From positions 96,001-160,000 of the forward strand of contig CM000436.1 of assembly GCA_000165345.1 (NCBI GenBank): 64,000 bases of DNA, given 5' to 3'. The notes below the pieces were generated by a model. It was given only the letters and a program-made list of their open reading frames with translations. It had not been told where the DNA came from and ran no database searches. The position numbers and the translations under genes are program-made. Below, piece after piece: positions 12,549-55,544 of this stretch (position 1 is the stretch's first letter; each line of letters starts with the position of its first letter).

Positions 12549-14891
12549 TTATAGCAACTGGATTGGTAAGGTAGAATCTTCAATATTCTGTATTAAGTTG
12601 CAGATCTTTTCTCTAATTTCTTTATTATCATTAGGTTCTGTTAAAATTATTCTTTCTTTATAAAGTATATTAACTATAACATTTCTTTTGTTATCTCTGG
12701 TATCTTTTACCGAAAAATAAAAGTTTGGAAAGTTGTCTTTTTTACTATATTCATCAATTTCAAGATTCTTATCCTTAATTTGAGCTTCTATTTGAGGATG
12801 AATACCATCTATACATAATCCATAGTTATTTTCTATAGATGATCTTAAAGTATTATATATTTCAATGTCTGCTAGGCTATTTTCATCCTGTTTATTTTCT
12901 GATAGAAAAGCAATATAATCCAGAATCATGAATGAAAGAGTATCTACTACCAAATCACATAATTGTGAAGAATTCCATTGAATTATTAACTCATGATCAC
13001 CAAGATCATGCCCATCCTGTCCAATTTCTTTTATTATATATATTACAATACTATTTTCATATAGATAAATCATTTCATTATTTAATATAACATCATCAAA
13101 AGATTTCTCAATTTCTTTCTCCAATTTGTTTAGATCCATTACAAAATTCTTTGGTAATGGTATTCTCATTGTTTGTTTAATACAAGACTTTTTCACATCA
13201 ATGATTTCTGATACATCTTGTGGTTTCATTAATAATGTTGGTTCAAAAGGGCGCATAATCAATAAAGTTTCCTCAATATCAATTTTAGAACTTTCTCTTC
13301 TTATTTTTTTAATACCATTATTACTATTCATATCAATTTGATTATCTTTCTCTCCTTTAACAAACAATTGCTTCTCATTTTCTTCTTTTTCTGTCAAATT
13401 CTTGATTNCATTNNNAATGCTTCCAATTGCATGTATTGCTTGTTGTGTAGGGAAAGTTAGTCCTACTTTTTGAAGAATTTCAGGAGCAAAAACAGCCAAA
13501 GATGGAGATAATTCTTTTAGCTTATCTTTAAGCTTCTTGCATTCTCCTCTTTCTCCATGAACAAGAATAACATTTGGGACTTTTAAACTGTTTATAAACT
13601 CTTGGGTCTGAGTAAAATCAGAGTGTGCTGAAAACGATATTTGGTCAAATTTAGCTCTCATTGGGATAACTTTTTCTCCAAGTTGAATCATTTCAGGCTC
13701 CTTACGAAGTTCATAAGCTGGTGTGCCTCTAACTGCATATCCTGTCAATATGATTCCATTTCTCTTATCTGGGGCCCAAATTTCAAAAATGTCACGGGAT
13801 GTACCATTTTGAAGCATACCTGGAGCTGCCATTACTACACAAGGACCTGGATTATAGATAATATCTTTAATTTCATTAAGTGAATTGACTGTTTTAATAT
13901 AATTGAATTGAAAAGGATTAATTCCTAAATCTGCTTGTCTTCTAACAGAATCTCCACACTGGTTGATATATGTCTCAAAGACTCTCATACATTTAATTGA
14001 CATAGGGGATGCATATATGATTGGAACATTTTGGATTGATGGAGTTCTCGACCAGTGTTCTTCTAGAATTAAAAGAAGTTCTTGAGCTCTGCCAATAGCA
14101 AATACTGGAAGCAAACATTTTCCTTTTCTTGTGATAATTGACTGAACTCCACCAAGAAACCTTTTTTCTCTATCAATTCGTGGTTCGTGTATTCTTGTCC
14201 CATATGTAGATTCACAAATCAAGACATGCACATCTATTGGAGGTATTTCTGCTCTTGGAACATGACGATCATCTTCTCTACTATAATCACCAGTATAAAG
14301 AATTCGAACTCCTCCAATTTCTACTAGAAACATACAAGCTCCCAATACATGTCCAGCTCCATAGCATGAAAATCTGATTCCATCCAGTTCAACTTGTTGT
14401 CTAAAATCGATAATTTCTGTCATATTAATAGCTTTCTCAATATCTTTTTCCGTATATAAGTTAATACTTGATAATGGTGCTTCCTCTGATTCGATGCTTC
14501 CGGCGGAGAATTTGTTAACTCTTGCATAGTCTTGCCAAACTAGTTTACAAATAGCCTTAGTAGGTTCAGTCATAAATACTTTACCATTAAAGTCTGTCAA
14601 ACTAACAAAGTAAGGAGTTGCCCCAGAATGATCCAAATGAAAATGAGTAATCAAACAAAGATCGATAGTACTCACATCTATTGCATCAAATACCGGAAGA
14701 GATCCAATGCCTGAAAATGCTGGATGTATTCCACAATCAAACATTACTGAACGACCTTTGAAGGATACGACAACGCATGAACGACCTACTTCACATCCTG
14801 CTCCAAGAACTTGAATATAGAGAGTCTCCCCTTCTATATCAATAGTCTGTTCAGTCACTCCTGAGTCCAAAACTACTTCATTGTAACTCAT
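12549..14891 (-). CDS. CPSF3: Cleavage and polyadenylation specificity factor 73-kDa endonuclease (CPSF73/CPSF3), 780 aa
   Basis: N-terminal metallo-beta-lactamase motifs (GAGCEVGRSCVVVSFKGRSVMFDCGIHP, ITHFHLDHSGATPYF), beta-CASP region and C-terminal domain. Ambiguous bases at 13408 and 13413-13415 give X residues. Confidence 0.85.
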   Translation of the reverse strand: MSYNEVVLDSGVTEQTIDIEGETLYIQVLGAGCEVGRSCVVVSFKGRSVMFDCGIHPAFSGIGSLPVFDAIDVSTIDLCLITHFHLDHSGATPYFVSLTDFNGKVFMTEPTKAICKLVWQDYARVNKFSAGSIESEEAPLSSINLYTEKDIEKAINMTEIIDFRQQVELDGIRFSCYGAGHVLGACMFLVEIGGVRILYTGDYSREDDRHVPRAEIPPIDVHVLICESTYGTRIHEPRIDREKRFLGGVQSIITRKGKCLLPVFAIGRAQELLLILEEHWSRTPSIQNVPIIYASPMSIKCMRVFETYINQCGDSVRRQADLGINPFQFNYIKTVNSLNEIKDIIYNPGPCVVMAAPGMLQNGTSRDIFEIWAPDKRNGIILTGYAVRGTPAYELRKEPEMIQLGEKVIPMRAKFDQISFSAHSDFTQTQEFINSLKVPNVILVHGERGECKKLKDKLKELSPSLAVFAPEILQKVGLTFPTQQAIHAIGSIXNXIKNLTEKEENEKQLFVKGEKDNQIDMNSNNGIKKIRRESSKIDIEETLLIMRPFEPTLLMKPQDVSEIIDVKKSCIKQTMRIPLPKNFVMDLNKLEKEIEKSFDDVILNNEMIYLYENSIVIYIIKEIGQDGHDLGDHELIIQWNSSQLCDLVVDTLSFMILDYIAFLSENKQDENSLADIEIYNTLRSSIENNYGLCIDGIHPQIEAQIKDKNLEIDEYSKKDNFPNFYFSVKDTRDNKRNVIVNILYKERIILTEPNDNKEIREKICNLIQNIEDSTLPIQLL
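13408..13415. other. Ambiguous bases (N) inside the CPSF73 CDS
   Basis: n at 13408 and 13413-13415. The frame is preserved, so these are base-call ambiguities rather than a gap. Confidence 0.9.
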
Positions 14892-25941: not shown

Positions 25942-27447
25942 TTACTTGTTATAGTTTTCTTCTGAAATAGTTGAATAGATTTTGGAGTAGATTGAGTTAA
26001 CTTTAAAAGATTCCATTTCTTTAACAAAATGGCAATCCTTAATATGAAATGAGAGAAATTGAATTGCAAAATCAGTTTGATCAGTGGAAATGCTTCTTTT
26101 TGTATTATATGAGTTATAAAAAACTCTATCTAGAAGAAGTCCTTGGCTTGGAGCTAAATGAATGGAAAATTTATCGGGTAAAAAACAAAGTTGAATTCCA
26201 TTGCTTGGAGCTGTTCCTCTAAAAATTTCTATAGCTAATGCTACCATTTTTCTTATTTGGTGCAATAGAAATGACTGGCCTTTAATTATAATCTTAATAA
26301 GGTTAATTTCCCCTTTAATTTCGTTTTGACTAACTTTTACTACTTTAATTTCTTCAATATGCCTCCAAGAAGTGGAATCTTCATAACTTGATTTTGATGT
26401 AAAATTATGAAAACTATGTGTACCAATATATTCATTCAAAATTGATTGAAATCTCTTTAAATCTTCATCTGATAAACTGAATCTCCTTTTTGGGTCTAAA
26501 TAATCCTCAATTTTATAATTTACCAACCTGTAATCATTTCCAAAACCATAGTTGTTGAGTCTATTAGTTTGATGAAATTCAAACTGTTTCATCCTCTCTC
26601 CTTTTTCATCATCCTCATCATCTTCTTCTCTTTCAACTTCTTCTTCGATTTCATTGACTTCAGGGTTATGGTTTAAACTTGTATTGATAGTTTCTCTTTT
26701 TCTTTTTTTACTTGCATTCTTTAATTCATTTAATCCTTTCTCAAATCTAGATAAGCTTGCTTTGTTAAGCTCTTCTTTGAAATCATCATTGTTAATATTT
26801 ACATGTTTAAGAAGAAATTCAGGCATTAAGTATTCGTATTGTCTTCTAGAACAATCTGTTCTGGCATCAAAATTCTTTGTTACTCTAAAAATCTTAAAAA
26901 CCTTAATTTTTGTTGATTCTAAAAGTTCATTGAGTTTAGTTACTATATAATCAAGAATCAATAATTCATCCAAAAATTCATCCAAATTATTTTTTAAAAC
27001 TAATGAAGCTCCTCCTAATAGAGGATTTATACTCTGAATTTTATCTACTCCATTCTTATTTAAAATATCTCTCTCTTCTTTAAGTCTTTTACAGATTTCT
27101 ATTATTTTTTCATCAACATCCTTATTCTTTAAAATAAGTTCTAACTCGTCATTTATTTTAATTTTAGCTCTAAAAGATACTACTTGACAAACTGAATGTA
27201 CCCCTTTATCAGTTCGCCCAACTCTAGACCACTTAATCTTCTTTAATAATCCTCCTTGATCATCATTTTGTTCATTACTTAAAAAAAACATACCAAGCTT
27301 CTCTAAACAATCTTCCATTTCTCCTTCAATAGTTCTCAATTCTTCTACCTTTTTATTATTTCTCATTTGAATCTGCATCCCATGATAATCTGATCCATCA
27401 TATCCAAAGGACATGCAATATGTTTTCATAGGGATTACCTCTTTCAT
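25942..27447 (-). CDS. tRNA pseudouridine synthase (TruA/Pus1-3 family), 501 aa
   Basis: N-terminus YCMSFGYDGSDYHGMQIQ and catalytic-Asp motif GRTDKGVHS, both TruA hallmarks. Acidic low-complexity insert. An alternative start is the Met at 27429. Confidence 0.8.
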   Translation of the reverse strand: MKEVIPMKTYCMSFGYDGSDYHGMQIQMRNNKKVEELRTIEGEMEDCLEKLGMFFLSNEQNDDQGGLLKKIKWSRVGRTDKGVHSVCQVVSFRAKIKINDELELILKNKDVDEKIIEICKRLKEERDILNKNGVDKIQSINPLLGGASLVLKNNLDEFLDELLILDYIVTKLNELLESTKIKVFKIFRVTKNFDARTDCSRRQYEYLMPEFLLKHVNINNDDFKEELNKASLSRFEKGLNELKNASKKRKRETINTSLNHNPEVNEIEEEVEREEDDEDDEKGERMKQFEFHQTNRLNNYGFGNDYRLVNYKIEDYLDPKRRFSLSDEDLKRFQSILNEYIGTHSFHNFTSKSSYEDSTSWRHIEEIKVVKVSQNEIKGEINLIKIIIKGQSFLLHQIRKMVALAIEIFRGTAPSNGIQLCFLPDKFSIHLAPSQGLLLDRVFYNSYNTKRSISTDQTDFAIQFLSFHIKDCHFVKEMESFKVNSIYSKIYSTISEENYNK

Positions 27448-47245: not shown

Positions 47246-50200
47246 TTACTTATCACTAGCGCTTGCCCCGCTATTATCAGCCTCTGGATTTCGCTCCAGA
47301 ATTACAATATCCTCAATAGCACTACAAGCTGGAACAAATTCATCAGTTGCTAACTCTGCTCTCTCATTAAACCCAAGAAGAACTGGAGTGTTGTGTGTCT
47401 GGAATCCCGTAATCTTTCTTGGATTCCCTGCTTGCCCTACAGTGTCTACCATCTGCCCCACACGTACCAGAGTTTGTATTGGCGCCAATGACGTGTCGAC
47501 TGTGACAACATGTCTGGGAGTAATAGCAGGAACAATTGAGAGTAAAAGATAATGATAATTGCCAAAAAGAATAGTTCTAGACCTTAGAGCAAGATGGAGA
47601 GTTGTGATAATGGAAACCAGACTTATTGGATTTAAAAGAAGTTTGTTTGCGTGGCAAGGATTCACTGTTACGAGACCTTTACCCATATATAGAAAACCTT
47701 GAGCAATTCTGACTGCATAAAGAGCATGCTTATCTTTTCCATAATACGAGGCCAACTGTCTCAGTAAGTTGGCAGTTCTAGAGTTATTTGTCCCTGCTGA
47801 AATTAATCCAAGAGCAAAAATTGCATTAAGAGCAACATCTGGATCGGAATCGTGGGTTAGTTTGGAAATTGTGTCTATCAACACTGGTTTAGGATTTCCA
47901 ATTGAAAGGGCAGCCAAACTTATTGGAACAGCTCTTCTAATAAAAACTGATGAGTATTGAAGGACATTGTCAAGTGCTCTAAGTGCCATTTCAGTTCCAA
48001 TTTCTTCTCCAAGACTTATTAATGCCATGTTTAATACGCATACTAATACTGAAATATCTGATTCATCATCATCCATTTGATCTTCATCCTCAGGTAGCTT
48101 CTTTCCTCCTTTAGCAAGGGTCTCCTCAACAAGAACTCTCTGCATTTCTTGGATCTTAAGTACATCTCCTGATCCTGTGTATGCACACCCAACCACAGTT
48201 TGTCTGCAGTGAGCTCCTATTGGATGAGTTATCGCAGAAAGAGCTTCCAAAGTTGTCTCACAAGCCTCTCGTTTTCCCAAAAAGAGTAATCCTAGACATA
48301 ATCCATAAAGGATACTTAAAGGATCATCTAAGAAGGAATTACTTTCAAGTTGTGAATCTCCTGTAGATTTCTTTTTATCTTCGCCACTATTAGATAAATC
48401 TCCATCTTCCATACTTGCACTAGTGAGTCCAATTGTCAGAAGAAGGTCCAAAACAGCTTCAATAATACTCTGATTTCCGGATCCTGAGAATATTAGTCCT
48501 AATGATAAAGCAGAAATAGCTGAACATTCTAAGCTTGAGAAAGGATCNATNNNGATTGGAATTAGTAATTCCAAGNTATCTTCTCGGCAGGTACCAATAT
48601 ATGAATAACCAAGGCCTAAAATAGCACCCATTCTAATGGTATAGTTTGGAACAGCCGTTTTGATTATTGAAATCTTATTATCATTTGAGTTATTTGCTGA
48701 TTCACCAACTATTTCCATCTTTACATCATCCCCTCCATCTTTACTACCGCTAGTAGCTACCTCTTGGATTGGTTCGTCTCCAGAATTGATATATTCAGAT
48801 AAAAGAGCAAAAGAAGGATCACAGTCGTTCTTGATTCTGATAGAAATTAATCCAAAAGCTATTAGAGCACCAGCTTTAATAAATGGATCATCACTCCACT
48901 GAAACTTATCAATGTTAGCCAAACCTTCATCAATATTCCAAAGATTAATCACTCCCAAGGAGGCACTTACTGCCATCTTTCCGGAATCCTTATTCTTATA
49001 GAGCCAGGATGAATCATCCTCTCCAATTAGTTTATCCTTACAAAATCCAACATTTACTAAGGCATTCACATATGTGGATGCTAAATTCTGTTTTGCTGTA
49101 TCCAAAACCATCATTGATCTACTAGAATACCTACCATTATTTTCCAGGTGGGTCTTGTAAATTTCCTCTGGAGTTTTTGGCTCAAGAACCTCCAATTCTT
49201 TTGCTAAGAATAAATAAAATTTGCTAAGATATTCATTTGAAAAGATACCTTCAATTATGGATAGCTCAGATTCTCCATAGATCTTACAGAAATCCCTGCT
49301 AACTAAATGAGCTTTAAGCTCCTCTAAGTCTATATTACTTGAGAATTTAGCAAGTTGGAAGAAGATTTGCTTCAAAATACTCAATCCTGAGACTCTGAAA
49401 GTGTTTGATGAGCTTGAGATATTAGAATCATTGGCCTCATCCTTAACTTTGTCCTTCTTTGATTCATATGACATTATATCATCTATTACAGAAAATACTT
49501 TCTCTTTACAATTTTGACCATCCAATTTAAGTGCTATAGAAACAGCCCAAGAGTGCTTTTCAAAGCTTAAAAGTAGCTCAAAGCAAAGTTTCAGATATAA
49601 ATCATGTTCTTCTGCTGATATAGCATATTGAGAAAGTTGTTGTAGGTATAATACGATCCTTTCCATTTGTTCAATATCAATTTTAGCTAAATATTCCAAT
49701 AATGTCTCCATTTGCTCGACTTCACAGAGCAGATCAATAGCTTCCAGTTCACAGTGCTTCTCAATCTGATAAGGTACCATAATCTTAACCAGTTCAAGGA
49801 GATCAGAAACATCTGCTTCTTGATCTGAGACTCCTGATAAGTCTTGGTTTGTTTGTCTTTCTGAATATTCTAATGTAATTTCACCTACAATATTTCTGAC
49901 ATACTCTTGACCCCAGTCTAATATTCCTTTCTTGTTTCCAGAAAGTAATCTATACTTTAAAGCTCTTTTCTCTTTCATATCCCCCAAAGTAGTTGATAAA
50001 ACAGAAATAATCTCACAAGAAAGTTCAGAAAGTTGACCTTTATTGGAAACCTGGGAATCACAAAATTCTTTCAGAGTTTCATAATGTATACCTAAGAACT
50101 TTAAAGCCTTTGGAACAGATGTCATTCCACTAGTAGATGTCTTTATTAAGCTCGAAAGGGATTCCAAGCTGGACTTAGAAACCTCAAACTCGGACTTTCC

Positions 50201-50362
50201 TGATACAACTTTCTCAACCAATTCATCTATTTCCTCTTTCAAAACTTTATCTTCCTCTGTTAAATCCATCATATCTACATTTGGAATTGATTCTACCTCT
50301 TTTAATCCCTCCTTCTTACCAGAATCCTCATTTTTGGACAAATTTTCTTTGTTTGACGTCAT
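47246..50362 (-). CDS. RPN2: 26S proteasome regulatory subunit RPN2 (PSMD1), 1038 aa
   Basis: Full-length similarity to RPN2, including the PC-repeat solenoid (…GALIAFGLI…; LGLGYSYIGT; AILGLGLI…) and an acidic N-terminus. Ambiguous bases at 48548, 48551-48553 and 48576. Confidence 0.85.
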   Translation of the reverse strand: MTSNKENLSKNEDSGKKEGLKEVESIPNVDMMDLTEEDKVLKEEIDELVEKVVSGKSEFEVSKSSLESLSSLIKTSTSGMTSVPKALKFLGIHYETLKEFCDSQVSNKGQLSELSCEIISVLSTTLGDMKEKRALKYRLLSGNKKGILDWGQEYVRNIVGEITLEYSERQTNQDLSGVSDQEADVSDLLELVKIMVPYQIEKHCELEAIDLLCEVEQMETLLEYLAKIDIEQMERIVLYLQQLSQYAISAEEHDLYLKLCFELLLSFEKHSWAVSIALKLDGQNCKEKVFSVIDDIMSYESKKDKVKDEANDSNISSSSNTFRVSGLSILKQIFFQLAKFSSNIDLEELKAHLVSRDFCKIYGESELSIIEGIFSNEYLSKFYLFLAKELEVLEPKTPEEIYKTHLENNGRYSSRSMMVLDTAKQNLASTYVNALVNVGFCKDKLIGEDDSSWLYKNKDSGKMAVSASLGVINLWNIDEGLANIDKFQWSDDPFIKAGALIAFGLISIRIKNDCDPSFALLSEYINSGDEPIQEVATSGSKDGGDDVKMEIVGESANNSNDNKISIIKTAVPNYTIRMGAILGLGYSYIGTCREDXLELLIPIXXDPFSSLECSAISALSLGLIFSGSGNQSIIEAVLDLLLTIGLTSASMEDGDLSNSGEDKKKSTGDSQLESNSFLDDPLSILYGLCLGLLFLGKREACETTLEALSAITHPIGAHCRQTVVGCAYTGSGDVLKIQEMQRVLVEETLAKGGKKLPEDEDQMDDDESDISVLVCVLNMALISLGEEIGTEMALRALDNVLQYSSVFIRRAVPISLAALSIGNPKPVLIDTISKLTHDSDPDVALNAIFALGLISAGTNNSRTANLLRQLASYYGKDKHALYAVRIAQGFLYMGKGLVTVNPCHANKLLLNPISLVSIITTLHLALRSRTILFGNYHYLLLSIVPAITPRHVVTVDTSLAPIQTLVRVGQMVDTVGQAGNPRKITGFQTHNTPVLLGFNERAELATDEFVPACSAIEDIVILERNPEADNSGASASDK
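48548..48576. other. Ambiguous bases (N) inside the RPN2 CDS
   Basis: n at 48548, 48551-48553 and 48576. The frame is preserved. Confidence 0.9.
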
Positions 50363-50754
50363 ATTACTTTGAATTCTCTCTTCCTAACTCTTCTAATTAT
50401 CTTATATTCCAATTCCCTCTCTCAAACCATTTCCTTATTACTTTGTTTTTTATTATTTTATTTTTATGTGAAAAAACGCTTTGCCTCTCAAAGCCTAAGC
50501 CAAGCTATTCACCCGCCCCACAGTTTTTTAATTTATTTTCTTATTTTTACCCTGCAATCTACTTACTCAAAAATTTATGTATTATTAAAATTTTCAGTGT
50601 GTGCGTGCTTATCAACCTCAAACCCTAATATTATTGCTTCCAAATGAATATCTAAACCGATAATATCCTGGTTTTTTTTAATAATATTAGAACTCTTATT
50701 ATCCTTTCCTTTTTTACCTGTATTTATTTTTTACCCTGGCATTATTACAAAAAC

Positions 50755-50792
50755 ATTTGGCGCCGGAATGTGGCGCTGATTTTTAAGCGGGC
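50755..50792. promoter_or_regulatory. Bidirectional promoter element with tandem E2F-like boxes (ATTTGGCGCCGGAATGTGGCGCTGA…AGCGGGC)
   Basis: Lies between divergent RPN2 (start 50362, -) and UEV (start 51081, +). Read directly. Confidence 0.45.
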
Positions 50793-51080
50793 TTGGAGCA
50801 TTTAAAATTATTTAGTTGATAATAATCGAGGAGGAAAATATTGGTAAAAGATAAATTATTATAGTAGGAGTTAAAGAAGGAGAAAGTTATTGTTAAGAAT
50901 TCAAGAAAAAAAAAAGATAAGGCACTGAAGTTTATAATTAGATTTTCTGTGTGTGTGATATAATTAACAAAATTTTTTGTTTTCTTGCAATCTTTCAATA
51001 AGGCAAGAGATACATTGGAAATAGGTTATTATAGTATAGGAATAAATAAATTGATTTATTACATTTTTTGTTGTTACACA

Positions 51081-51560
51081 ATGGATGAAGTTATTGTTCC
51101 AAGAAGTTTTAGATTACTTGATGAATTAGAGAGAGGTCAGAAAGGGCAAGCTACTGATGGAGTATCATGGGGTCTGGACCAACATGATGATATTACATTA
51201 AGTACCTGGGCGTGTACTATTTTTGGTCCTCCAAATGTAAGTTTATATAAACTGTTATTTATTTACTTAATTTCTTGACTATCATTTAATTAGACTACTT
51301 TTGAAAACAGAATATACTCACTAACTGTTTCTTGTGGTCCAAATTATCCTGATGAAGCTCCTATTGTCAAATTCAATACAAAGATTTCTCTTGGATGTGT
51401 GGATGGGCATGGATTTGTCAGCCCAAGTTTTGCTGTACTAAAGCAGTGGCAAAGGAATTTTTATATTGAGAATGTTTTAATAGCGTTAAGACATGAAATG
51501 GCCTCCAATTCTAATCGAAGATTAGCTCAACCTCCTGAAGGTACTTTTTATGATGATTGA
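51081..51560 (+). CDS. MMS2: Ubiquitin-conjugating enzyme E2 variant (UEV1/MMS2), join(51081..51236,51294..51560), 140 aa
   Basis: Exon 1 [22 protein letters not shown]…[12 protein letters not shown] matches Mms2 VPRNFRLLEELEEGQKG…GPPR. Exon 2 [31 protein letters not shown]… matches [22 protein letters not shown]…. The 57-nt intron is GTAAGT…aattAG, phase 0. The upstream part of track ORF 50985 is spurious. Confidence 0.75.
51237..51293 (+). other. Spliceosomal intron (57 nt) in the UEV/MMS2 gene
   Basis: GTAAGT donor directly after the GPPN codon. An AG acceptor at 51292-51293 restores the conserved TxxENRIYSL continuation. Confidence 0.7.
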
Positions 51561-51762
51561 TCTCATGCAGCCAAAGTTACTATATGAAGTGATGAAAGGG
51601 AAAATTAATATCATTTAGGGTATACTAAAAATTTGCTTTCCTAATATTTGTTATACTACGAGCTATAAATAAAAAAAAAAAAAAAAAAAGGTCTTGGAAT
51701 TAAGAATCCTATAATCTTATTATCTTTAATGAACTTTTTTTCTATCAATAACTTAATTCTTT

Positions 51763-52740
51763 CTATTTTTGTTGAATCTCATCTTGAATTATAATAGATT
51801 CTACGGCTAAACCTATTTTAGAATATTCAGATTCTGAGTTAGAATTGAAATATTTAACTATATCACCAACAATATTATGACCCTCCTCTAAGAGCTGATG
51901 TTTACAGTTTTGATAGATGATCGCCCTTGTTTTTGGCATCATCTTTTTTAGCTTTGGAATTAATAAATCAGCAGGAACCATATCATCATACAGACCCAAA
52001 AAAAAGCATACTCCAGTTATTCCTCTTAATGAAATATATTTATCCATAAATACTTTAAGAGCTTGTTCATTTTCCCAGAAATCAAAACCTGTTACCACTC
52101 TACCAAAAGTTGATCGTAATTGTCTACCATAATATCTGTGCCTTAAATACCTCAAATTTACAATTTCTTGATTAATTTTTTCAGGATCATAGTAATCTTC
52201 CAATATATTATCTCTACTCTTTAATAGATATAATGGAAGTGAATTTTCAAAAAATCTAAAAACTCCTGGAAAATTTTTTAAAACAAAACTTTGTATTCCT
52301 GAGAGTGGCCTGCAAAAACAAGCTGGACATAAAGAAGCTACCTTAAGTACTTTCTCTGGATGGGCCCCTGCATAACATAAAGTCATTAAACCTCCCATGG
52401 AAATCCCAACTAAATATAATAACAATTTTTCTAAACCCAAATTTATTAACACTGTATCTACTTGTTTAATAAAATCATCAGTTGTCAATTTTCCAAAATA
52501 GTTCCAAGAAGAAAGTCCATGTCCAGGCATATCTATTCTCAGTACTGCTAAGCCTGACTTTAAACATTCAGTCTCTAACTGCTTGAAAGAAGAAATTGAG
52601 CTTAGTAAACCATGAAAGCATATTACCAAAGGACCTTTATATGCTGCCTTCTCAATATTTGGGAACGATAATGCATAGTTTATTCTTCCATTTGGGCCTT
52701 CTGTGAATTTCCCCTCTTCAAATTTATATTTAGATTCCAT
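51763..52740 (-). CDS. Alpha/beta-hydrolase fold protein (lipase/esterase-like), 325 aa
   Basis: HG oxyanion motif (LVICFHGLLSS), nucleophile elbow GISMGG (GxSxG), and a C-terminal His in NCKHQLLEEGH. Paralogous to the 53620 gene. Confidence 0.7.
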   Translation of the reverse strand: MESKYKFEEGKFTEGPNGRINYALSFPNIEKAAYKGPLVICFHGLLSSISSFKQLETECLKSGLAVLRIDMPGHGLSSWNYFGKLTTDDFIKQVDTVLINLGLEKLLLYLVGISMGGLMTLCYAGAHPEKVLKVASLCPACFCRPLSGIQSFVLKNFPGVFRFFENSLPLYLLKSRDNILEDYYDPEKINQEIVNLRYLRHRYYGRQLRSTFGRVVTGFDFWENEQALKVFMDKYISLRGITGVCFFLGLYDDMVPADLLIPKLKKMMPKTRAIIYQNCKHQLLEEGHNIVGDIVKYFNSNSESEYSKIGLAVESIIIQDEIQQK

Positions 52741-52956
52741 TTCCTTTTTACAAACGTTCTAAATTAATAGTTTATTTAATATAATTCCAAATTCTATTTT
52801 ACAATTGTCTTAAATCTAAATTATATATTGCTAGAATGATTAATTAATCCAGAATATACTGCTATATAAATCTAATTCCACCTAACTATTGCCACGTAAT
52901 TCAACAAAAAAAAAATGGCTAAATGTGAATTTATTTTTATTATTACAAAGAATTGT

Positions 52957-53475
52957 GCATGTGCCCGCCAAATTGACTTATATTTGTCATTTAATTTTTA
53001 TTGGTACTAATAATATAAAAATGTGAAAACAAATTTTTTTTAAATAAAAAAAATTACTTGATTAGTGATCCATTATGAAAAAGAATATGTCTGAATTCTT
53101 TAAAACATATTGCTATCCTATTGTTACATATTTTTATAAAGTTGATTTGCTTTCGACAAACTGATAAGGAAGAAATAAAACAGAATATCCTTATACTACT
53201 TGTTTTTCTACTATTCTCCTTTTTCCTACCTTACAGCCTATTTCAGTTTAAGTAGATATACCGGAGTCTTCACACCAAAAATTGATTTTAAGAAAGTAAA
53301 TAATTACATAACAAGCAATTTAAAATAAAAAAAAAGACTAGACTAAAGTCAAACAATCTCTTCCATCTTATTATTTTATCTTTTTTTAAAGTATTTACCG
53401 TCTTATAATTAATTAAGACTCACCCCACTGTAAGAATCGGGAAAAAAAGAAGTGGCGCCAAAATTTGGGCGCTGG
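52957..53475. promoter_or_regulatory. Divergent promoter region of the hydrolase paralog pair, with E2F-like boxes at 52957-52974 (CATGTGCCCGCCAAATTG) and 53450-53475 (AAGTGGCGCCAAAATTTGGGCGCTGG) and ATACCGGAG at 53258-53266
   Basis: Motifs read directly in the 879-bp intergenic region. Confidence 0.4.
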
Positions 53476-53619
53476 ATCGAATTATAGAGGACAATAAAGG
53501 CAAATAAGAAATATCAAAGGTAAAGTCAAATATAATAAAAAAATTAATACATTTTTAAAAGTTAAATTAATAGAAAAAAAAAGGGGCAAAATAATTTAAT
53601 AACTTTTAGTAATAGCAAT

Positions 53620-54873
53620 ATGTGGTTATTCAAATACATATTTGCAATCATAAGTTTTGCTTATGTAGGTATCTTCAAAGTTTATGGAGAAGAGCAAAAA
53701 GTCATTCCTGACCACTTTTACTTTGAAGAAGGCTCTAAAATCCAATTATCACATGGAATAGTTAATTATCAATTACATAAAGAAAATGATGATGGACCTA
53801 TTTCTGTATGTCTTCATTGTTTTATGGGTACAATTTCAGATTGTTCAAGTATTTCAAAGAATTTAGCTAAGAATGGTTATAGAGCTTTAAGATTTGATTT
53901 TTATGGGCATGGTTTGTCTCAATATAAAAATTTTGGACAATATTCTGTGGATGATTATGTTGACCAAACAATGGAATTACTTGAGAAATTGGGTCTTTAC
54001 AATGTAACTGCTATTTCTGAAGAAGAGTTACATTCAAGTAGTTTTATACCAAAGTTGCATGTAATAGGTACATCTTTGGGTGGATTTGTAGCAATGAGAA
54101 TTGCTCAAAGATTTCCAAAACATATTAGCAAGTTAGTTTTAGATGCTCCTCCTGGTTTATTGAAGAAGAAAGTTGCACCTTATTTACAATATTCAATCAT
54201 TAACTATCCATTACAACTTTTTGCCAATATATACTCACCAGTTTGGGGTTGTTATCAATTTATGGATCCTCCATCTGAGAATCTTTCTTCTCCAAAGCTT
54301 GATTTTAGAGCAAAGCACTATTGTAAACAAATACTTTTAACATCTCTACAACTATTTTTGGGAATTAATTTATGGAATAATCAACAAATTTATCAAGAAT
54401 TTAGTAAAGTCGATGTACCAACTCTTTTTTTCTGGGGAGCTGAAGACAGATTATGCCCACTTTCTTCAGCCATTACTATTCTAAATGAATATGTACCAAA
54501 CACAAAGATTATTGTTTATGAGAATTGTAAGCATAGATGCTCTAAATATTGTAAAGAACAATTTGTTGAAGATGTTATTAAATACTTTAACAATGAATTA
54601 GACCAAGAACTTGTGTCAATGTCACAATATTACAATTCAGTGCATGATATAGTTCATTCTTCAGAAAAGAGATCACTTCCATCAATTAGAGGTACCAAAA
54701 CAGATACTTTATTAGAGCCTAGCTCAATACCTGAAGATACATGTTCAACAAGTACATCTGGTAGTCAAGAAATTGCAGTTCAGTTAGCATCCTCAACTGA
54801 AGAAAATACCGAGACTGGGAGTTCTATGAGTAGTTCAGAAAATTTCGATGATTTTTGTAAAACTAAGAATTAG
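53620..54873 (+). CDS. Alpha/beta-hydrolase fold protein with N-terminal signal/anchor and Ser/Thr-rich C-terminal tail, 417 aa
   Basis: N-terminal hydrophobic MWLFKYIFAIISFAYVGIF. VCLHCFMG oxyanion region, GTSLGG nucleophile elbow and C-terminal NCKHR. Clear paralog of 51763-52740 (NYALS…ICFHGLLSSISSFKQL…GHGLS versus NYQLH…VCLHCFMGTISDCSSIS…GHGLS). Confidence 0.7.
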   Translation: MWLFKYIFAIISFAYVGIFKVYGEEQKVIPDHFYFEEGSKIQLSHGIVNYQLHKENDDGPISVCLHCFMGTISDCSSISKNLAKNGYRALRFDFYGHGLSQYKNFGQYSVDDYVDQTMELLEKLGLYNVTAISEEELHSSSFIPKLHVIGTSLGGFVAMRIAQRFPKHISKLVLDAPPGLLKKKVAPYLQYSIINYPLQLFANIYSPVWGCYQFMDPPSENLSSPKLDFRAKHYCKQILLTSLQLFLGINLWNNQQIYQEFSKVDVPTLFFWGAEDRLCPLSSAITILNEYVPNTKIIVYENCKHRCSKYCKEQFVEDVIKYFNNELDQELVSMSQYYNSVHDIVHSSEKRSLPSIRGTKTDTLLEPSSIPEDTCSTSTSGSQEIAVQLASSTEENTETGSSMSSSENFDDFCKTKN

Positions 54874-55544
54874 ATAAAGATATGAGTTTAGAAAAAAAAA
54901 AAAAAAAAAAAGAAATTACCAATTTCTATCAAAATTTTAATTAGAAAGCTTCTTGCTATGAAAATGGGATATTAATCAATGAATATATTAGAATGAGTGA
55001 GAATTGGATGACACTCCTGGGAGTCCTAAATGTTAGCCTGTAATCAGTTATACTTTAATTGGTGTGCTTCATTAAATAGGATTTCCCAATACTGGAGATA
55101 GAACAATTACAGTTGAAGGAGTTAAATTATAAAATATCTCAGAAACCCAAACTCCTTAACTGCTTCAGTAGGAGATAACGTTCTATTCTTTTATACATTT
55201 TATTCAACCAAATTTTACTAGAATTGAAGTATTTTCTAATTAATATTTATGTTTAACTTAAAAATATATTAATTGAAACTTGATAATATGTGAGCGAAAG
55301 CTTTTACTTCTTAAAAAAACAGAATAAAAGTTCTTATGTTCTCTTGAAAATTTCTATTAATTATATTTTTCCATAAACTCTTCAAGAATTTGGAAATTTC
55401 TGCATGCATGAATACATGCACTAATTTCTGGGAATGCCGCTTTTTCATAAATGACATAATTGTTACGTGTATGTTTAAAAAACAAGAAAAAATTAATTAA
55501 ACATTATTTACAGAATACTAGAGTAGCATATAAATTAAATATTG

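Follow-up and report, generated by a model that had tools for sequence, protein, structure and literature searches.

Structure and conservation of the locus

Two genes for alpha/beta-hydrolases, referred to hereafter as A and B, lie head-to-head in a stretch of 64,000 nucleotides of the Cryptosporidium parvum genome (GenBank assembly GCA_000165345.1, contig CM000436.1, positions 96,001 to 160,000 of the forward strand); this stretch is our window, and all coordinates below are counted from its first base. An earlier sequence-only reading of the window had described divergent open reading frames (ORFs) of 325 and 417 aa separated by an 879-bp spacer, and its coordinates, lengths and orientation are all exact (Table 1). 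By exact sequence match, A corresponds to the C. parvum records CPATCC_003859 / QOY39809.1 and B to CPATCC_003860 / QOY39810.1. In the Iowa II annotation A is EAK87514.1, with a model of 331 aa, and B is EAK87499.1, named 'secreted alpha/beta hydrolase superfamily protein'. Both genes, including the 'secreted' label on B, are already in public annotation.

Table 1. Positions of the A-B gene pair and of features within it
Feature	Position	Strand	Description	Basis
Gene A	51763..52740	minus	325-aa alpha/beta-hydrolase, without signal peptide	ORF, Pfam, exact record match
Gene B	53620..54873	plus	417-aa alpha/beta-hydrolase, signal peptide and acidic Ser/Thr-rich tail	ORF, Pfam
A-B intergenic region	52741..53619		879 bp, 24% GC; presumed to hold both promoters	
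A-proximal E2F-like box	52965..52972	minus	TTTGGCGG, 225 bp upstream of the A ATG	
B-proximal E2F-like cluster	53453..53472		TGGCGCCAAAATTTGGGCGC, ~165 bp upstream of the B ATG; combines palindromic TGGCGCCA with a near-match	
Catalytic triad of A	Ser114 52399..52401; Asp252 51985-51987; His281 51898-51900	minus	Ser114 within GISMG; invariant in A orthologs	
Catalytic triad of B	Ser152 54073..54075; Asp276 54445-54447; His305 54532-54534	plus	Ser152 within GTSLG; invariant in B orthologs	
Predicted cleavable signal peptide of B	53620..53688	plus	residues 1-23, MWLFKYIFAIISFAYVGIFKVYG, followed by EE	heuristic assessment
C64-L-H-C67 of B	53809..53820	plus	oxyanion 'HG' changed to 'HC', making CxxC	invariant in B family
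B-specific insertion	53998..54051	plus	YNVTAISEEELHSSSFIP, ahead of the nucleophile strand; N-x-[ST] sequon at N128	A-B alignment
Predicted disordered tail of B	54664..54870	plus	residues 349-417, acidic and Ser/Thr-rich	pLDDT <50

The arrangement UEV-A(-)-B(+)-RFC1 is identical in six species (C. parvum, C. muris, C. ryanae, C. felis, C. ubiquitum and C. bovis), so that the orthologous locus holds two copies, head-to-head, in every species compared. In C. muris the order reads RPN1, UEV, a hydrolase of 318 aa (minus), a hydrolase of 415 aa (plus) and RFC1; across the five species other than C. parvum the A-B spacer measures 370-1013 bp. As the same arrangement is found in C. muris, C. ryanae, C. 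bovis, C. felis and C. ubiquitum, the duplication predates the radiation of the genus. The head-to-head pair is older than the split between gastric and intestinal Cryptosporidium, and has been stable since. In the homolog search, orthologs of A were recovered from at least 10 Cryptosporidium species or lineages, with the lowest identity (56%) in C. xiaoi, while those of B reach C. muris and C. serpentis, with identity down to 48%.

Similarity across the whole catalytic domain

The two proteins align by BLASTP over 318 aa with 26% identity (112 bits, E=2e-32), from the first beta-strands through the variable lid to the helix beyond the catalytic His. Likeness confined to the surroundings of GxSxG, which the sequence-only reading had named as the finding that would speak against paralogy, was therefore not what we saw; the alignment takes in the full catalytic domain. 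Both proteins exceed the Pfam cutoff for Abhydrolase_1 (PF00561; 70.6 bits for A and 75.5 bits for B, cutoff 25.8), and both are likewise above threshold for Hydrolase_4 and Abhydrolase_6. Their Ser-Asp-His triads stand in canonical order and align with each other, and are among the 40 columns that are invariant across 22 sequences of the A and B families. A joint A+B profile run against 1.84 billion representative proteins returned 34,771 matches at E<=1e-3, 19 of them at E<=1e-30, and solved alpha/beta-hydrolases in the PDB reach ~40-48 bits at most with either family profile. Taken together, the full-domain E-value, the low scores of solved structures and the small set of matches at E<=1e-30 place the A-B similarity far above the generic GxSxG level.

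The sequence-only reading had recognized the paralogy by shared blocks (NYxL, C(F/L)H, GHGLS, GxSxGG and NCKH). These are indeed present, but they are not specific to the pair: INYxL, VC(L/I)HG, LRFDxxGHGLS, GxSMGG and even CKH are also carried by chromerid, colpodellid, Rhytidocystis and Platyproteum homologs, and the cited blocks are markers of the wider family rather than of A and B. Only one 5-mer is common to A and B, which is why a word-indexed search with one copy misses its partner. Single-query searches of this kind stayed within the genus, and relatives outside it came from the exhaustive profile search.

These outside relatives form a myzozoan group (Abhydrolase_1 / S33 'serine aminopeptidase') that is nearest to A and B among the 1.84 billion representatives, at 130-171 bits on the joint profile. 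It includes Vitrella brassicaformis CEM02744.1, Chromera velia Cvel_3489, Rhytidocystis GHVS01107638, Colpodella, Platyproteum and Siedleckia. The nearest proteins outside Cryptosporidium, labelled by their numbers in our sequence set, are those of Vitrella (P0034), Rhytidocystis (P0035), Chromera (P0036 and P0037) and Platyproteum (P0038); further near relatives belong to Selenidium (P0039), Colpodella (P0041), Siedleckia (P0042) and dinoflagellates. The transcriptome shotgun assembly prefix GHVS, under which P0035 is deposited, denotes Rhytidocystis sp. (PMC7522995). Besides the blocks named above, the last of which takes the form (C/A)KH and the third (V/A)LRFDxxGHGLS, the group has an LW(E/D)N lid motif in common with A and B. 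It differs from them in its long, unrelated C-terminal extensions, as well as at the N-terminus, where it is without a signal peptide.

A search of the 64-kb window with tblastn for a third copy gave only a weak match (E=6e-4) at 26686-26970, which we reject as a chance match inside a 501-aa ORF for a TruA-like pseudouridine synthase. No meaningful DNA-level inverted repeat joins A and B, the only matches being AT-rich and of low complexity.

Divergent N-termini and predicted localisation

The predicted signal peptide of B was called heuristically, from its n-, h- and c-regions, Kyte-Doolittle windows and the residues at -3 and -1. Its h-region comprises 14 residues with a Kyte-Doolittle value of 2.4, and V occupies position -3 and G position -1. 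The same pattern recurs throughout the B family, where one or two basic residues come first, then a hydrophobic core of ~14 residues, then a site of the VYG-EE, VLG-EE or VFC-DD type (the hyphen marking the predicted cleavage); a 12-residue window with a Kyte-Doolittle value of 2.0-2.7 lies inside the first 25 residues of all 11 B orthologs. Signal-like N-termini were found in 11/11 B orthologs, 0/12 A orthologs and 0/8 of the closest outgroups. With this distribution, the predicted signal peptide is clearly a gain in B. On this point the sequence-only reading holds up well: it had proposed that one copy gained an N-terminal signal or anchor, that the other looks cytosolic, and that the two diverged in localisation after duplication, and the predicted location does differ, with the signal-like N-terminus in B only. 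A is presumed to be cytosolic and B is presumed to enter the secretory pathway.

An MG start is present in five of the eight closest outgroups, four of them myristoylation-like (MGGKQS, MGGATS, MGGACS and MGKGKS), and is absent from both Cryptosporidium copies. Starts of the MGxxxS/C form, a type associated with N-myristoylation and possibly palmitoylation, were noted in Chromera P0036, Platyproteum P0038, Siedleckia P0042 and P0049. The ancestral enzyme was probably a lipid-anchored protein on the cytosolic side of a membrane, the MG start having then been lost in A and B.

The hydrophobic N-terminus of B could instead be an uncleaved signal anchor, which would make B a type II membrane hydrolase comparable to mammalian ABHD6. 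ABHD6 is anchored through an N-terminal transmembrane helix. It is also a top neighbour of the pair in both sequence and fold; long hydrophobic N-termini occur in many of the more distant homologs, and the AlphaFold2 (AF2) model gives residues 2-21 of B as a single helix. However, the hydrophobic core extends over only ~14 residues, from K5 to K20, fewer than a transmembrane span usually takes, and small residues at -3 and -1 followed by an acidic stretch, as seen in nearly all B orthologs, make up the classical cleavage pattern. We regard an anchor as unlikely and favour a cleaved signal peptide.

Weighing against the proposed localisations, a literature search found no localisation, proteomic, expression or activity record for A or B; the TgASH4 paper touches on Cryptosporidium in passing only. 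A 'secreted alpha/beta hydrolase', CPATCC_0025460, has been reported as upregulated after simulated digestion (PMC11443851). We considered this record as a possible match to B and rejected it, as its gene number differs from those of the A/B pair and it appears to be another gene.

A and B as sister copies

We conclude from sequence comparison that A and B are sister paralogs, duplicated in the Cryptosporidium stem lineage. Evidence for this comes from four-cluster likelihood mapping (267 trimmed columns, a BLOSUM62-derived reversible rate matrix, four gamma categories), in which the topology joining A with B against two outgroups (AB-XY) was best in 248 of 252 quartets, with a posterior >0.9 in 210, while the topology pairing A with the near outgroup and B with the far one was best in none. 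With Siedleckia P0042 as outgroup, AB-XY was preferred in 24/24. The two families also recognize each other in profile searches, the A profile scoring the B family at 113-141 bits and the B profile ranking the A family top, at 101-131 bits, with the best outgroups at ~116-117. Further to that, A and B alone have in common the derived states FG..DD[FY], KQ[IL] and G[FI][DN] (MP in outgroups at the last of these), which set Cryptosporidium apart from the myzozoan group along with the two adjacent copies and the missing MG start. The claim of paralogy through an inverted local duplication, made in the sequence-only reading, is thus borne out by the adjacency in six species and by the quartets, and more weakly by a neighbour-joining (NJ) tree, in which A and B group with 52-68% bootstrap.

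Compositional bias was considered as a source of the grouping, the FYMINK amino acids making up 30-33% of A and B and 23-26% of the outgroups. We reject it on the grounds that AB-XY remained best in 242/252 quartets after Dayhoff-6 recoding, and in 36/36 each for the equally AT-biased outgroups P0041 and P0049.

A number of observations weigh against a simple sister relationship. Raw identity fails to set the pair apart from the outgroups, being 27-31% between A and B and 24-31% between either of them and the closest outgroups. On the A profile, Rhytidocystis P0035 reaches 147 bits, above every B. The bootstrap support for A+B in the NJ tree is weak, with 9-22% of replicates joining A to P0035 instead. 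The likelihood mapping itself used a home-built rate matrix and non-independent quartets in place of a full maximum-likelihood tree. Against the Cryptosporidium paralogs P0047 and P0048, AB-XY is only weakly favoured, as detailed below. Finally, the homolog search returned no gregarine orthologs by name, and only transcripts of Siedleckia and Selenidium. Eugregarines being absent from the sequences identified, the duplication has only a loose lower bound in time.

Elsewhere in Cryptosporidium genomes there are at least two more paralogs with a signal-like N-terminus: P0047 (C. xiaoi/C. bovis, 410 aa) and P0048 (C. muris, 355 aa), both on other contigs, are more distant paralogs of the same broad family. 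By prediction, Cryptosporidium has several secreted hydrolases of this alpha/beta type. It could be that B is closer to these proteins than to A, in which case the signal would have been gained once, by a secreted protein ancestral to them all, and the separation of A from B would be the first of several duplications. The hydrophobic, signal-like N-termini of both P0047 and P0048 fit such a history, and so does the score of P0047 on the B profile (99 bits), near the lowest A score of 101. In the quartets, posteriors exceeded 0.9 in only 7/24 (P0047) and 3/24 (P0048), and B+P0047 was best in 4/24. AB-XY was nevertheless still best in 19/24 and 20/24, respectively; P0047 and P0048 score 80-99 bits on the A and B profiles and, like nearly all proteins from outside the pair, fall below the A-B cross-scores of 101-141; and the NJ tree places P0048 far from the A+B clade. 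We hold this history to be quite improbable.

A duplication older than Apicomplexa, or even than Myzozoa, would give A and B each their own orthologs outside Cryptosporidium, with their adjacency either retained or coincidental. Candidates for such orthologs can be named from their scores on the A and B profiles: P0035 (147 and 87 bits) and P0036 (127 and 90 bits) would be of the A type, and Platyproteum P0038 (88 and 117 bits) of the B type. C. muris A also finds its stronger match in P0035 (126 bits), the best B reaching 111 bits, and the bootstrap replicates joining A to P0035 point the same way. However, the topology that pairs A and B with separate outgroups was preferred in 0/108 quartets for P0035, P0036 and P0034, and B+P0038 in just 4/36, with recoding giving a similar result; the B profile puts the A family (101-131 bits) over P0035 (87). 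High outgroup scores on A and low ones on B also fit sister copies, provided that A is less diverged from the ancestral sequence than B. An older duplication is therefore very unlikely, and a sister relationship is the reading we retain. That A and B are unrelated alpha/beta-hydrolases lying side by side by chance, a generic fold signature being all they have in common, has the low identity of 26% as its sole point in favour and can be dismissed, given the full-length alignment including the variable lid, cross-scores well above the ~40-48 bits reached with any alpha/beta-hydrolase in the PDB, and the position of A, B and a small myzozoan clade far above the other 34,771 matches.

Cysteines, insertion and tail of B

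Apart from its N-terminus, B differs from A around the active site. The Gly of the H-G motif after strand beta3 is replaced in 11/11 B orthologs, where the sequence reads C-L-H-C; A has C-F-H-G, and A together with all close outgroups conforms to C-x-H-G. Cysteines 67, 75, 279, 307 and 311 are invariant in B only. Two of these lie in the segment C303-K-H305-R-C307-S-K-Y-C311 (54526-54552), where C307 and C311 stand at i+2 and i+6 of the catalytic His, an arrangement seen neither in A nor in the close outgroups. The CxxC motif and the cysteines flanking the His could place the active site under disulfide or redox control. The insertion before the nucleophile strand of B is up to 16 residues long, and about half that in the gastric species, and its sequon at N128 is kept in 9/11 B orthologs. 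Cysteines, sequon and insertion would all fit folding in an oxidising secretory pathway.

The C-terminal tail of B, in which Ser and Thr make up 38% of residues in C. parvum as against 11% in the core, is present as the sequence-only reading had described it. Across orthologs the tail contains 20-38% S+T and 15-23% D+E, and its identity between species is 11-47% (near-identical C. hominis excluded), compared to 55-88% for the B core. That the tail was gained by B, as also proposed there, finds no support: low-complexity sequence also extends the C-terminus in most of the closest outgroups (by 80-274 aa in 6/8), and the tail cannot confidently be called a gain for this reason. It may be ancestral and lost in A, which has a short conserved C-terminal extension only, and loss in A is as plausible as gain in B. 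Within the tail (54682-54740, residues ~355-374), R357-G358 is invariant in 11/11 orthologs (IRGT...LEP), a VQLASST block is conserved among intestinal species, and two cysteines are widely conserved. The R357-G358 region may be a processing or sorting motif.

Both A and B are clearly under purifying selection. The catalytic core has changed less in B than in A, its identity being 55% versus 45% when C. parvum is compared with C. muris and 70% versus 59% when it is compared with C. ryanae, although secreted proteins of parasites would ordinarily be expected to change faster.

Predicted activity

With their aligned triads, A and B are predicted to be active serine hydrolases of the capped alpha/beta fold. 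Foldseek matched both AF2 models with probability 1.00 to ~1,500 PDB alpha/beta-hydrolase chains. The human monoacylglycerol lipase ABHD6 (PDB 7ots) is the best PDB sequence match of the A profile (E=1.1e-11, 47.6 bits, residues 39-151), although other subfamilies follow within a few bits; it ranks second by Foldseek for both models, and an ABHD6-like protein is among the named relatives in the homolog search. ABHD6 and MGLL (7ots; 3jw8) have the capped fold and the Ser-Asp-His triad in common with A and B, and ABHD6 also matches B. The identity is 17-19%, however, and the sequence match lies mainly in the N-terminal half; unlike ABHD6, A is without an N-terminal membrane anchor and B has HC in place of HG.

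The membrane phospholipase A1 PlaF of Pseudomonas aeruginosa (6i8w) is the top Foldseek match of B (E=1.6e-11, template modelling score 0.56 on the target) and matches A too, by sequence and by fold. It differs in being bacterial, and with an identity of 17-18% it resembles the pair no further than in the generic capped fold. The best PDB sequence matches of the B profile are the C-C hydrolases BphD, HsaD and CumD (E ~1e-10 to 1e-8), which are fragmentary and far below equivalog level (57 bits against a cutoff of 400 for HsaD, 47 against 462 for BphD); the aromatic-degradation context of these enzymes is missing from the parasite. Among the NCBIfam equivalogs MenH, PcaD, BphD, HsaD, BioH and proline iminopeptidase, the best scores are 45-59 bits, with cutoffs of 208-462.

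We tentatively propose that A and B hydrolyse lipid or short-chain esters, the former within the parasite and the latter at the host interface or in a compartment of the secretory pathway, a possibility that falls somewhat short of being probable. Esterases, C-C hydrolases and dehalogenases count against it by scoring similarly to lipid esterases as structural neighbours, as does the distance from any NCBIfam equivalog cutoff. The models are mediocre as well, with predicted local distance difference test (pLDDT) values of 62.7 and 60.6, a confident beta-sheet core and an unresolved lid.

A scenario for the pair

Paralogy, sisterhood, synteny and the conservation of features come from the comparisons above, and from these we infer where A and B act and what they do. 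An alpha/beta-hydrolase of the myzozoan family would have undergone a local inverted duplication in the Cryptosporidium lineage before the living species diverged. The ancestor would have belonged to a type that lacks a signal peptide, often begins with MG of the myristoylation type and in most cases ends in a C-terminal extension of low complexity. Both copies would have kept the Ser-Asp-His triad and with it serine hydrolase activity, and would have been routed to different compartments: A, with no signal peptide, no MG start and a short C-terminal extension, to the parasite cytosol; B, having acquired a short cleavable signal peptide, the invariant cysteines and the sequon in its insertion, and bearing an acidic disordered tail, to the secretory pathway. 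The two genes would be transcribed divergently from a common AT-rich spacer with generic E2F-like boxes, and the likely activity would be lipid ester hydrolysis of the monoacylglycerol-lipase, lysophospholipase or phospholipase A type. As a whole, that is, as an ancient local inverted duplication that left two active hydrolases in different compartments, we consider the scenario likely.

It is conceivable, if rather improbable, that B is a Cryptosporidium-specific secreted lipid hydrolase derived by re-routing of an N-acylated enzyme of the cytosolic face, which in the parasitophorous vacuole or at the host-parasite interface would free fatty acids or lysolipids out of host membranes for a parasite without de novo fatty-acid synthesis. 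The CxxC motif and cysteine cluster would then make the enzyme redox-dependent and active only once secreted. Should B turn out to be secreted and to act as a lipase on lipids of the host, it could reasonably be taken up in nutrient-scavenging or drug-target work.

Beyond annotation, the pair matters little, as alpha/beta-hydrolase records of both genes exist in every Cryptosporidium genome. What is added here is the evolutionary framing: a stem-lineage inverted duplication in fixed synteny genus-wide, a predicted signal peptide gained within an otherwise cytosolic and probably N-acylated family, and a core that is more conserved in the presumed secreted copy than in the presumed cytosolic one. 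A and B would make a neat but unremarkable example of paralogs subfunctionalised by localisation.

The divergent spacer

As stated in the sequence-only reading, E2F-like boxes are real on each side of the spacer, but they are not distinctive. The TGGCGCCA/TTTGGCGC box of the B side occupies 53453-53462, and a GGCGCC or TTTGGCGC box lies 65-300 bp upstream of B in 5/6 species. On the A side, among the six species compared, the TTTGGCGG box recurs only in C. felis, with a partial GCGGGA in C. ubiquitum. Both patterns are strongly enriched in the window relative to shuffled sequence (9 observed versus 0.86 expected, and 5 versus 0.07). No putative regulatory site is more abundant in C. parvum than the E2F-like motifs (TGGCGCCA, TTTGGCGGGAA), which are over-represented upstream of genes in 163/200 expression clusters (2,379 genes) and are tied to no one pattern of expression (PMC3734150). 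The boxes look like marks of ordinary C. parvum promoters and of nothing more specific. A search for non-coding RNA in or around the spacer gave no Rfam match at E<=0.1.

Other observations in the window

The UEV gene at 50985-51560, between RPN1 and A, which encodes a ubiquitin-conjugating-enzyme variant (UQ_con), is split: a 97-aa ORF ends at 51278 and the frame resumes at ~51297, which implies a short intron. Its orthologs are called as proteins of 140-144 aa in C. muris, C. ryanae, C. felis, C. ubiquitum and C. bovis. RPN1 and UEV are themselves divergent, and their spacer is pyrimidine-rich and strongly strand-skewed over 50250-50750 (GC skew -0.49, AT skew -0.27), with a TTTGGCGC box at 50756-50763. 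The window contains nine ambiguous bases, at 13408-13415 and 48548-48576; the latter fall inside the RPN1 ORF (47246-50362, minus) and give rise to X residues, reflecting assembly quality and not biology. Two plus-strand elements, at 51657-51691 and 54881-54912, consist of TA(C/T)GAG(C/T)T followed by ~20 A and lie ~110 nt past the UEV stop and 18 nt past the B stop, respectively. They may represent a 3'-end or polyadenylation signature, or plain AT-rich low complexity.

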